IMG/VR virus record: IMGVR_UViG_2526164664_000023
DNA length: 25,327 nucleotides
Source of the DNA: a virus
Taxonomy: Duplodnaviria; Heunggongvirae; Uroviricota; Caudoviricetes
Strand: one strand, 5' to 3'
In this document: positions 21,001 to 24,000 of the stretch, in pieces
How the letters are laid out: each line of letters begins with the position of its first letter
Position numbering within the stretch: position 1 is the first letter of the stretch
Program-made: the position numbers

Positions 21001-24000
21001 GTCTCTCGATGAACATCAGAAAGCATGGTTGCTTTGGTGTTACAGCGAAAGCGTTCGATGGGGGCATCAGGTCACCATAACGCAATGGGCATGGAGCGAG
21101 TTTAAAGATTTGTTAAGTAACAGAAAAATTGCAGGTAAGACACTGGATCGCCTGAAGACGTTAATCTGGCTGGCTGCACAGGATGTGAAGAGCGAACTTG
21201 CAGGGCGTGAGGCCTATGAATACCAGACACTGGCATCATTGGTGGGAGTGACAACAAAAAACTGGTCCGAGACATTTACTGAACGCTGGGTTGCAATGAA
21301 GCACATTTTTCTACAGCTTGATAGTGATGCTTTATTGCTTGTGACGAGAACACGTTCAAAACAAAAGGCAGCATTTTTACAGCAAAATATTGCAAAACTG
21401 GATTAAAAGCCATATACTTCATGCAAATTTGGTATGTTGTAAAAAATGTATAAACCCGCTGCCGAGTGGGTTTTTTTATGCCCTGAGTTGTACTTGTACG
21501 GTAAACATGCTGGCTGCTATGTAATAGAGTTTTTTTAGCCTGTAACCTCTTGACGGCATTGAATTGCTTTTGTTATGAGTTGTAAGCCAATGTTATCATC
21601 TTGTATTGGGGTGGTTATGAAGGATGGTGCGCTGCTCAGGAGTTCTTCACTTTTTATTGCCTACATGGGATGCCTTGGATGGGGGAGTGCTTATTTCTAT
21701 GGATGGGGTACTTCTTTTTACTACGGCTTCCCATGGTGGATTGTAGGTGCAGGTGTTGATGATGTTGCCAGAAGTTTATTTTTTGCAGTTATCGTCATTG
21801 CTATATTTCTTATCGGTTGGGGTATTGGTGTTGTATTCTTTTTCGCAGTGAAAAGAAAACATTCTATGCAAGTAGCTTAAATGTATTTCGCCTTTATTTT
21901 GCTGTGGAATTATTGTTTGTGCCGGCAATTATTGAGTTTTCTATATTGAGACAGAAGATTCAGGTACCTCTTTTGCTACTGTCAGCAGCGATTGCGCTGG
22001 CGGTTACAATTTCGATAAGATCTTATGGGCGATTTTTATCGGTATCATGCTTCTATGATAAGCCATTTATAAAAAAACATTTTTTTGAGATTGTGATGAT
22101 TGCTTTTGTGGCATATTTTTGGCTTTTTTCATTTCTGACAGGATATTACAAACCACAGTTTAAGAAAGAATATGAAATGATTAATTATAATGATGGTTGG
22201 TATTATGTTCTTGCTCGTTATGATAATTGTCTGGTTTTGTCTACTTCTTTCAATGCAGGTAGTAAAAGGTTTGTCATTTATCAATCAGCACAAGATAAGA
22301 ATCTTCAGGTTGATATTGTAAGGACCAGAATTTAATTGGCTGCATAAATAATATTTTAAGTTGCAAGTTGGCTATTCGTAGGAATAGAACCTTAGGCATG
22401 CTGAATGCGTTTTCTGAACATTGTTTTATAAACTGTGTCTGCTTGCTGTTGTGATCCTGCTTTTAGTGATGGTGATGATGGATTTCACCAGCAGGATAAT
22501 GTTGGTACTGACTGATGGCGCTCTGGTCTGCGGCATTGTGGTATTGCTGTGGCCGATGATGAAAGAACAGAATGAATAATTCTTGACTTTTTTGTTTACT
22601 GTTTATTAAAAAATCAACCGCATGGTGAATCCTCCTTGGAGGGGCTAAATGATCGAGTTTTAAGGGCACGTAGCGAGTTCTGTTTGATCATTGCAGAACT
22701 TAGCGGGAGGCGGCCATGCGTACATCACTAGTGTTATTCCTTTTATCATTTTCCTTGTGAGTTCTGGCTGCGCATTGCGCAGCCTTTTTTTATGACCTGC
22801 CACTGGCAGATGGTCATCCTGTGATTTGATTCCGCTTCCGGCTTTTTAACTCTGTTCCTCTACACGGGAGAAATTCGATGTCGATTAAACATTACGATGT
22901 TGTCAGGGCGGCGTCGCCGTCAGACCTTGCGGAAAAGCTGACACACAAACTGAAAGAGGGCTGGCAGCCATACGGCGGACCGGTTGCCATTACGCCGTAC
23001 ACACTGATGCAGGCGGTGGCTATTGAAGGAGAGCCACAGGTCGGCCCTTCATCTGAGCCGGATTGGTACTACGTCATCGTACTGGCCGGGCAATCCAATG
23101 CCATGGCTTACGGTGAAGGGCTTACGGTGAAGGGCTTCCGCTGCCGGATTCATACGATGCTCCGGATCCGCGCATTAAACAGCTGGCGCGCCGCAGTACA
23201 GTGACGCCGGCGGGGCTGCCTGCAGATATAACGATATTATTCCGGCTGACCACTGTCTGCATGATGTGCAGGATATGAGTACGCTGAATCATCCGAAGGC
23301 AGACCTGAGCAAAGGGCAGTACGGCTGTGTCGGCCAGGGGTTACATATTGCCAAAAAACTGCTCCCGTATATCCCGAATAACGCGGGGATCCTGCTGGTA
23401 CCATGCTGTCGTGGTGGTTCGGCATTCACCCAGGGCGCGGAGGGGACATTCAGTGCGGACACGGGGGCCAGCCAGGATTCGGCACGCTGGGGTGTGGGTA
23501 AACCGTTATATCAGGACCTGATTGCGCGCACTAAAGCTGCATTACAGAAGAACCCGAAAAGTGTGTTGCTGGCGGTGTGCTGGATGCAGGGAGAGTTTGA
23601 CATGAGCGCCGCCACCCACGCACAGCAACCTGCGCTGTTTACAGCCATGCTGACACAGTTTCGTGCTGACCTCTCCGTGTTTAACGCGCAGTGCCATGGT
23701 GGCAGTGCTGCAGATGTGCCGTGGATTTGTGGTGACACGACGTATTACTGGAAAAATACATACGCTACCCAGTACGACACCGTGTACGGCGGGTATAAAA
23801 ACAGGGAGAGTGAGGGCGTTTATTTGTGCCCTTCATGACAGACGGTAACGGTGTCAATACCGCCACTAACGCGCCGGCAGAAGATCCGGATATTCCGGCA
23901 TCAGGATATTACGGTGCGGCATCGAGAACGAATGGAAACCAGGTATCATCAAACCGCCCGACACATTTCAGTTCATGGGCGCGCAGGAGCATTATTCCGG

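Follow-up and report, generated by a model that had tools for sequence, protein, structure and literature searches.

A 14-bp tandem duplication of probable slippage origin in a prophage nanS-p gene of the Escherichia coli O26:H11 / O111:H11 group

The window, which is the whole stretch of 25,327 nucleotides of the IMG/VR virus record IMGVR_UViG_2526164664_000023, contains ybhC, an integrase gene, a lambdoid early region, an lpxR insertion, the antiterminator gene Q and nanS-p. The last of these, a gene for a prophage sialate O-acetylesterase that is interrupted by a perfect tandem duplication of 14 bp, is the subject of this text. The window comes from the end of a draft contig of E. coli DEC10D (AIGS01000008.1, 96,359 bp), the final 5062 window bases being identical, and DEC10D is an stx-negative O26:H11 strain of sequence type 21 (ST21) from France, 1952 (PMC5592225). 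Chromosomes of the O26:H11 type match the window at 99.8% across 25 kb, and the host element is a non-Stx lambdoid prophage integrated beside ybhC in the O26:H11 / O111:H11 clonal group of E. coli. The nanS-p gene is located between Q and the holin and lysozyme genes, both in the annotation of near-identical loci and among the genes called on the source contig. Every context read has the order LpxR, YlcG, Q, TfpB-like gene, DUF3927, nanS-p and holin, which is the same prophage module.

The intact allele of a nearly identical prophage (locus L006) encodes a protein of 616 amino acids (aa) with the Pfam domains DUF1737 (residues 4-49), SASA (66-262) and DUF6645 (467-577), which match PF08410, PF03629 and PF20350 above their cut-offs. 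The window has the same three domains, distributed across three separate open reading frames (ORFs). Residues 60-379 of the intact allele match the structure of the E. coli esterase NanS/YjhS (3PT5, E=9.3e-122), and residues 421-613 match the solved C-terminal domain of NanS-p (6YP6, E=1.1e-29). Domains and structural matches thus confirm the identification of the gene as nanS-p, made in an earlier note on this DNA, and its architecture and its position in the late operon are as described in the literature (PMC10462455, PMC8065619).

In SGNH hydrolases of the SASA family, Block I has the nucleophilic Ser and the oxyanion-hole Gln, Block III has the (H)QGE motif and Block V has the catalytic His (PMC9487903), and the Ser and His of NanS were confirmed by mutagenesis (PMC10017367); the catalytic residues are assigned here according to these two reviews. 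When the repeat is collapsed and two missing bases are restored, the window gene becomes one ORF of 616 aa, with GQSN at residues 71-74, MQGE at 232-235 and PTHFSS at 357-362. Blocks I, III and V have to be in one frame, and in the window as assembled GQSN belongs to the 108-aa ORF, MQGE to the 190-aa ORF and the His to the 304-aa ORF.

The window has exactly two occurrences of the 14-mer CTTACGGTGAAGGG, directly adjacent on the plus strand, at 23107-23120 and 23121-23134, and exact search, Tandem Repeats Finder (TRF) and a direct scan agree on this arrangement, which the earlier note had reported. TRF gives 23105-23137 with a period of 14, 2.4 copies, 100% matches and no indels. Shuffled sequence has a mean of 0.02 matches to the 14-mer with one mismatch allowed, and the direct scan of the 25.3 kb finds no second perfect tandem duplication whose unit exceeds 8 bp, about 1e-4 such sites being expected from base composition. 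Bases 23100-23140 are gccatGGCTTACGGTGAAGGGCTTACGGTGAAGGGCTTccgctgcc. The register of the repeat slides over six positions (23105-23110), because the unit, GGCTTACGGTGAAG in the TRF register, is followed by GGCTT, which is a copy of its own first 5 bases.

The duplication starts at codon 76-77, four to five codons past the catalytic Ser of GQSN, and shifts the frame by +2 (14 mod 3). It had been placed right after the esterase motif, and this vicinity is correct, but AYGEGL is itself encoded in part by the duplicated bases, so the repeat lies within this segment and not strictly past it. Frame-0 translation from 22878 ends in ...VLAGQSNAMAYGEGLTVKGFRCRIHTMLRIRALNSWRAAVQ*, the junction part being ...AGQSNAMAYGEGLTVKGFRCRIH..., with a stop codon at 23202-23204 after 108 codons, so both the +2 shift and the truncation that had been proposed are present. 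Only the Block I Ser motif is in frame with the start codon, which argues for the inactivation of the esterase that had also been suggested. The window copy is a pseudogene of the NanS-p family, and its sequence predicts a non-functional member. The features of the gene are listed in Table 1.

Table 1. Features of the nanS-p gene in the window (positions are those of the whole stretch).
Feature	Position	Strand	Remarks
nanS-p pseudogene (prophage sialate O-acetylesterase)	22878..24740	+	split into ORFs of 108, 190 and 304 aa; Pfam hits
DUF1737 coding region, aa 4-49	22887..23024	+	in frame with start codon; PF08410 E=1.6e-16 on the 108-aa product
Block I GQSN, aa 71-74	23088..23099	+	predicted catalytic Ser codon TCC 23094-23096; sequence and motif scan
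Repeat copy 1, GGCTTACGGTGAAG (TRF register)	23105..23118	+	TRF and exact scan
Repeat copy 2, the extra 14 bp	23119..23132	+	absent in intact alleles (TRF, alignment)
GGCTT, 5-bp microhomology	23133..23137	+	3' of the unit in all alleles; in one-copy alleles a 5-bp direct repeat with 14-bp spacing
GTG overlapping the stop (GTGA)	23201..23203	+	gene-caller start of a 513-aa SASA+DUF6645 ORF in public two-copy alleles
Premature TGA stop	23202..23204	+	ends the 108-aa product
G-run one base short (GG, GGG elsewhere)	23209..23210	+	first -1 shift; in no complete genome
190-aa ORF fragment	23266..23838	+	most of the SASA domain, Block III MQGE 23584-23595; off the start-codon frame
Tract of 27 substitutions relative to the common O26 allele	23297..23725	+	identical to the O121/OY754853-type allele
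T-run one base short (TTT, TTTT elsewhere)	23823..23825	+	second -1 shift; in no complete genome
304-aa ORF fragment	23826..24740	+	end of the esterase, Block V His in PTHFSS 23958-23975, DUF6645 lectin-like domain

The distribution of the duplication was followed in 5426 complete E. coli genomes with a 46-nt junction query, which a one-copy allele is unable to seed. At least two copies of the unit are found in 81 genomes, of which 80 match end to end and have exactly two copies; the 81st, OY754853, has three. Strains 11368 (the reference strain) and H19 are among the hits, as are O111:H11 strains and many isolates from the Centers for Disease Control and Prevention (CDC), from the United States Department of Agriculture (USDA) and from Japan, and the loci with the duplication are all annotated in RefSeq as "DUF6645 domain-containing protein, frameshifted". 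About 90 complete genomes contain at least 80% of a 25-kb query (window bases 1-25000), so that, set against the 81 genomes with the duplication, most carriers of the prophage have it. It is also present in every one of the closest relatives, whose identity with the window is 99.8% over 25 kb.

The 108-aa product is encoded by 258 contigs; in the O26:H11 reference strain 11368 it is BAI24181.1. The two-copy allele is also found on an IMG/VR contig of another isolate. The junction has no match in the phage collection, in the one-genome-per-species collection or in metagenome contigs, and the two-copy allele appears confined to E. coli isolate genomes. Its presence from the 1952 isolate through isolates of the 2010s indicates that the two-copy state is stably inherited. 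The duplication is a real, lineage-wide pseudogene mutation that is already annotated as frameshifted, and the recurrence of the same junction in the 80 genomes and on the IMG/VR contig, with the product on 258 contigs, upholds the view of the earlier note that it is a genuine mutation and not a base-calling error.

The junction is matched at two places in NZ_CP074879.1 (strain 2010C_5028). One is 4001-4046 of locus L007; the other may belong to another copy of the prophage or to a paralog into which gene conversion brought the repeat. In locus L021 (JAOWNT010000001.1), at 3824-5542, a two-copy nanS-p is split up into at least four small ORFs. The assembly is probably one from long reads and rich in errors, and it illustrates how unreliable frame calls in nanS-p are.

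The comparison with intact alleles of related prophages, suggested earlier as a check, finds a single copy of the 14-mer in them. One-copy alleles read ATGGCTTACGGTGAAGGGCTTCC, with the core GGCTTACGGTGAAGGGCTT, and in the allele alignment their GGCTT is repeated 14 bp apart. Alleles with one, two and three copies differ by whole units and keep their flanks in register, the copies being perfect and head to tail, with no spacer. Collapse to one unit gives a 616-aa ORF in all public two-copy and three-copy alleles examined, so the repeat is the sole lesion in these alleles.

The three-copy allele is present in three assemblies, two on the common O26 background and one on the mosaic background that is shared with the window. 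Its product has 88 aa, as the third unit creates an in-frame TGA inside the repeat. Three copies were counted from the identity bands of the 46-nt junction scan and from an exact look-up of the 88-aa product; a 60-nt three-copy junction query was discarded because overlapping pieces of two-copy loci were merged into "100% covered" places. The occurrence of three copies on two backgrounds implies at least two independent expansions from two to three copies, or recombination downstream of the repeat.

One copy is found, for example, in strains 7_14_50A and 7_15_5C. The prophage of the former differs from a two-copy prophage by the 14 bp, three single-nucleotide polymorphisms (SNPs), the lengths of two homopolymers and the site where IS600 is inserted. 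Its one-copy state would be either ancestral or a precise reversion, since three SNPs in a 26-kb prophage are compatible with either direction. Together, this nearly identical one-copy prophage and the three-copy alleles on two backgrounds point to a repeat that still changes length. In locus L014 (BEIX01000143.1, 1-1462), the antiterminator upstream of one of the three-copy alleles is a different one (PF03589), accompanied by NinG and a metallophosphatase, and the TfpB-like gene, DUF3927 and nanS-p of this locus travel with another prophage backbone.

Slippage is the most likely mechanism in view of the anatomy of the repeat: the unit of one-copy alleles is bounded by the 5-bp direct repeat GGCTT, a substrate for slippage, which agrees with the origin suggested in the earlier note. 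Slippage, or a related microhomology-mediated event, between the two GGCTT pentamers 14 bp apart in the intact gene would have produced the duplication. The extra 14 bp would shift the frame by +2 past the catalytic Ser, and translation would stop after 108 residues, giving a product that keeps DUF1737 and Block I and loses the QGE of Block III, the His of Block V and the C-terminal carbohydrate-binding domain. With Blocks III and V lost, this copy would not be able to act as an esterase.

The allele would then have been inherited vertically with the prophage, and it is probably tolerated by redundancy, as related genome records have 8 to 13 nanS-p-like places each. Seven nanS-p copies in EDL933 and five in O104:H4 encode active esterases (PMC8065619), and with several functional copies in enterohaemorrhagic E. 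coli (EHEC) the loss of one is plausibly neutral. The tandem repeat, once formed, would be less stable than a single copy.

Downstream of the duplication, the window gene has two further shifts, each of -1. A MAFFT alignment of seven alleles gives exactly three indels in the window gene, which are the +14, the missing G and the missing T. The 41-mers centred on each deletion, which seed only if the deletion is present, have no match in the 5426 complete genomes. By exact look-up, the products of the 190-aa and 304-aa ORFs are EHW82683.1 and EHW82684.1, each found only in DEC10D and on the single contig AIGS01000008.1. Set against CP027442, its closest relative, the window lacks a single base at 12 sites in 25 kb, of which 9 fall in runs of 6 bases or longer, and has a single extra base at 3 sites; outside nanS-p there are zero substitutions. 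Delannoy et al. considered frameshifts in cas3 of DEC10D to be possibly sequencing or assembly errors (PMC5592225). Because they are private to DEC10D, because the draft has an excess of single-base deletions and because cas3 provides a precedent, the two -1 shifts probably entered the sequence as errors in the consensus of this draft. The earlier note had said that they may be artefacts, and their restriction to one draft rich in single-base deletions, mostly in homopolymer runs, favours this without proving it.

All 30 substitutions relative to the closest relative fall in nanS-p, 27 of them within a 430-bp tract that looks like the result of gene conversion between nanS-p paralogs, a mosaic that leaves the upstream duplication untouched. 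Private substitutions, absent in the six comparison alleles, are located at 23561, 23852, 24044 and 24640 (N224S, L584P and two synonymous changes). They may reflect poor consensus or the mixing of paralog reads in a multi-copy gene, or a real change. A copy from paralogs was also considered and is ruled out for the two that were tested, neither of which is found in any complete genome.

It is very probable that a genuine duplication of the slippage type inactivated one inherited prophage copy of nanS-p and that the two -1 shifts are, most probably, errors of the draft. Some points weigh against this account. The -1 shifts are in short runs (G3 and T4), which are less typical of miscalls than runs of 6 to 8, and they are in an already dead gene, where real secondary decay is possible. 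The private substitutions cluster in nanS-p (Fisher p=3e-5), the other 23 kb having none, and neither of the two tested is found among the complete genomes. The copy number in DEC10D rests on one draft consensus and on the relatives, and the loss of esterase activity is predicted from sequence.

The short runs (G3 to G2, T4 to T3), which differ from those of 6 to 8 where most window indels occur, also speak for the alternative that the two -1 shifts are real secondary mutations, by which the gene continued to decay in DEC10D. The concentration of four private substitutions in nanS-p and the absence of the two tested ones from other genomes, as is to be expected of private mutations, point in the same direction. 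Relaxed selection, however, leaves the mutation rate unchanged, yet 23 kb of the same prophage have zero substitutions, and six private changes in 1.9 kb better fit a poor consensus in a multi-copy repeat. The draft also has systematic single-base undercalls, and frameshifts in it were flagged by others (PMC5592225). Continuing decay in DEC10D is thus unlikely, although it keeps some weight next to draft errors as the source of the -1 shifts.

In a second alternative, the repeat is a slow reversible switch that tunes one prophage esterase, ON with one copy and OFF with two or three. Among relatives, three-copy alleles are rare (three assemblies), and one copy is found in an almost identical prophage. 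If this were true, expansion and contraction would give the lineage standing variation in esterase dosage. Alleles with 1, 2 and 3 copies (L006, L005 and L014/L015) have an essentially identical background, the three-copy state occurs on two backgrounds, and as no public allele tested has any lesion besides the repeat, the precise loss of one unit would restore the gene. Against a switch, exactly two copies are found in 80 of the 81 complete genomes where the repeat is expanded, and the persistence of this state from the 1952 isolate to those of the 2010s indicates that it is stably inherited. The frame is open with a single copy only, as two copies give 108 aa and three or more give the TGA inside the repeat and 88 aa. 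The alleles are also nearly identical, so that a sole lesion may merely reflect a young age. We consider a switch very improbable, and a slippage duplication that is inherited in its OFF form remains the preferred interpretation.

A third alternative is that the 108-aa DUF1737 fragment and a re-initiated protein of 513 aa are made as a two-piece enzyme, or that the latter is a dead carbohydrate-binding protein. In public two-copy alleles the 513-aa ORF encodes SASA and DUF6645, and its GTG start overlaps with the stop codon of the first ORF (in L016-L020 the two genes are at 3501-3827 and 3824-5365), and the C-terminal domain has a lectin-like fold (6YP6; PMC10462455). However, the 513-aa ORF is without the catalytic Ser, no Shine-Dalgarno-like sequence is evident upstream of the GTG, the break is inside the SGNH fold just past strand 1, and the assembled window has a break in this ORF too, 5 nt further on. 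Expression of the downstream ORF is purely hypothetical, and a residual function of this kind is still less credible than a switch.

An assembly or sequencing artefact of the draft, with a strain that truly has one copy, could draw on the many single-base indel errors of the same contig and on the multi-copy nature of nanS-p in relatives (8 to 13 places per record), from which paralog reads could be mis-assembled, but with the identical junction in 80 complete genomes, sequenced by several laboratories on several platforms, on the IMG/VR contig and on 258 contigs in total, and with two copies in all of the closest relatives, an artefact of this draft alone is excluded for practical purposes and its probability is negligible. 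An exact 14-bp insertion is not known as an error mode of homopolymer-prone chemistries.

Two ways in which the frame might be restored were also examined and rejected. The sum of the three indels (14-1-1=12) puts the last ORF back in frame 0, and a net change of +12 bp could seem to restore the gene; this is ruled out, as the frame-0 stop at 23202-23204 precedes both shifts and about 700 bp of the esterase domain are out of frame. Programmed frameshifting or transcriptional slippage is rejected as well, since the site shows no slippery run and, compared with intact copies, the allele behaves like a plain insertion.

Other differences from relatives are found upstream of nanS-p. The TfpB-like gene (247 aa, PF27470), at 21575-22335, is split into two ORFs in the window by an extra T at 21873 and at 21877. 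These are absent from all relatives, and one of them is outside any run, unlike the pattern of homopolymer deletions; both are probably further errors of the draft. The G-run at 20516 is G6 in the window and G7 in CP027442, and as an independent contig (L011) agrees with the window, this may be a real polymorphism rather than an error.

In the remainder of the prophage, lpxR, which encodes a lipid A deacylase, is located at about 19284-20243 on the minus strand; in the annotation of L005 it is flanked by the remnant of a truncated antiterminator and by ylcG-Q, and it is apparent cargo within the late-regulatory region. An IS600 element (IS3 family of insertion sequences) at 3582-4845 interrupts the region of an ASCH-domain gene in the window, and its flanks overlap by 3 bp, suggesting a target duplication. 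The site differs from that in the closest relatives, as IS600 is between erf and kil in CP027442 and inside erf in CP074835, which makes its position a strain marker within this prophage. Four copies of a unit of about 20 bp, CATCCCTCAAAACGAGGGA, are found at 14167-14244 inside the replication-protein gene; they presumably correspond to iterons of a lambda-type origin, which they resemble, and nothing unusual is apparent in them.

As a lesion, the 14-bp repeat is a textbook slippage duplication that is already catalogued, being "frameshifted" in RefSeq and a split ORF in GenBank (BAI24181.1 of strain 11368). No mention of the duplication was found in the literature that could be searched, and a search for nanS-p with "pseudogene" returned nothing. 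The main study of nanS-p diversity reports disruption by IS insertions only (PMC10462455). The finding has little biological weight: the pathogen lineage is well studied, and the dead gene has many redundant counterparts among the prophage esterase genes. Tallies of functional nanS-p genes in O26 strains should leave out the two-copy allele, and the copy number of the 14-bp unit (1, 2 or 3) is a possible minor marker for lineage or typing within the O26:H11 / O111:H11 group. The case also shows clearly how a true indel is told apart from sequencing noise when a draft assembly is prone to errors.

Among known systems, the gene is closest to the NanS-p proteins of EHEC, such as z1466/933Wp42 of phage 933W and vb_24B_21 of phi24B, with which it shares the DUF1737-SASA-DUF6645 architecture, the place in the late operon between Q and the holin gene and the match of the C-terminal domain to 6YP6. 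Unlike these examples, the window copy is frameshifted and is carried by a non-Stx prophage beside ybhC, downstream of the lpxR insertion and without stx genes. The esterase core aligns with NanS/YjhS (3PT5), including the GQSNAMAYGEGLPLPD segment that has the duplication site; NanS, in turn, is without DUF1737 and DUF6645 and has no prophage location, and in the window copy the frame of Block I differs from that of Blocks III and V.

With the phase-variable loci of Haemophilus and Neisseria the locus has in common a repeat in a coding region whose copy number sets the frame. It is not classed as a member of these contingency loci, from which it differs in having too few copies, a single ON state and an OFF state that is stable for decades. 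With tandem duplications formed by slippage or microhomology it shares the perfect head-to-tail copies, an ancestral short direct repeat and the gain, and possibly the loss, of units in relatives. The classic example of slippage is the frameshift hotspot of lacI with its CTGG repeat, and unlike repeats of this type, which have units of 1 to 6 bp, the one in nanS-p has a unit of 14 bp and only 1 to 3 copies.

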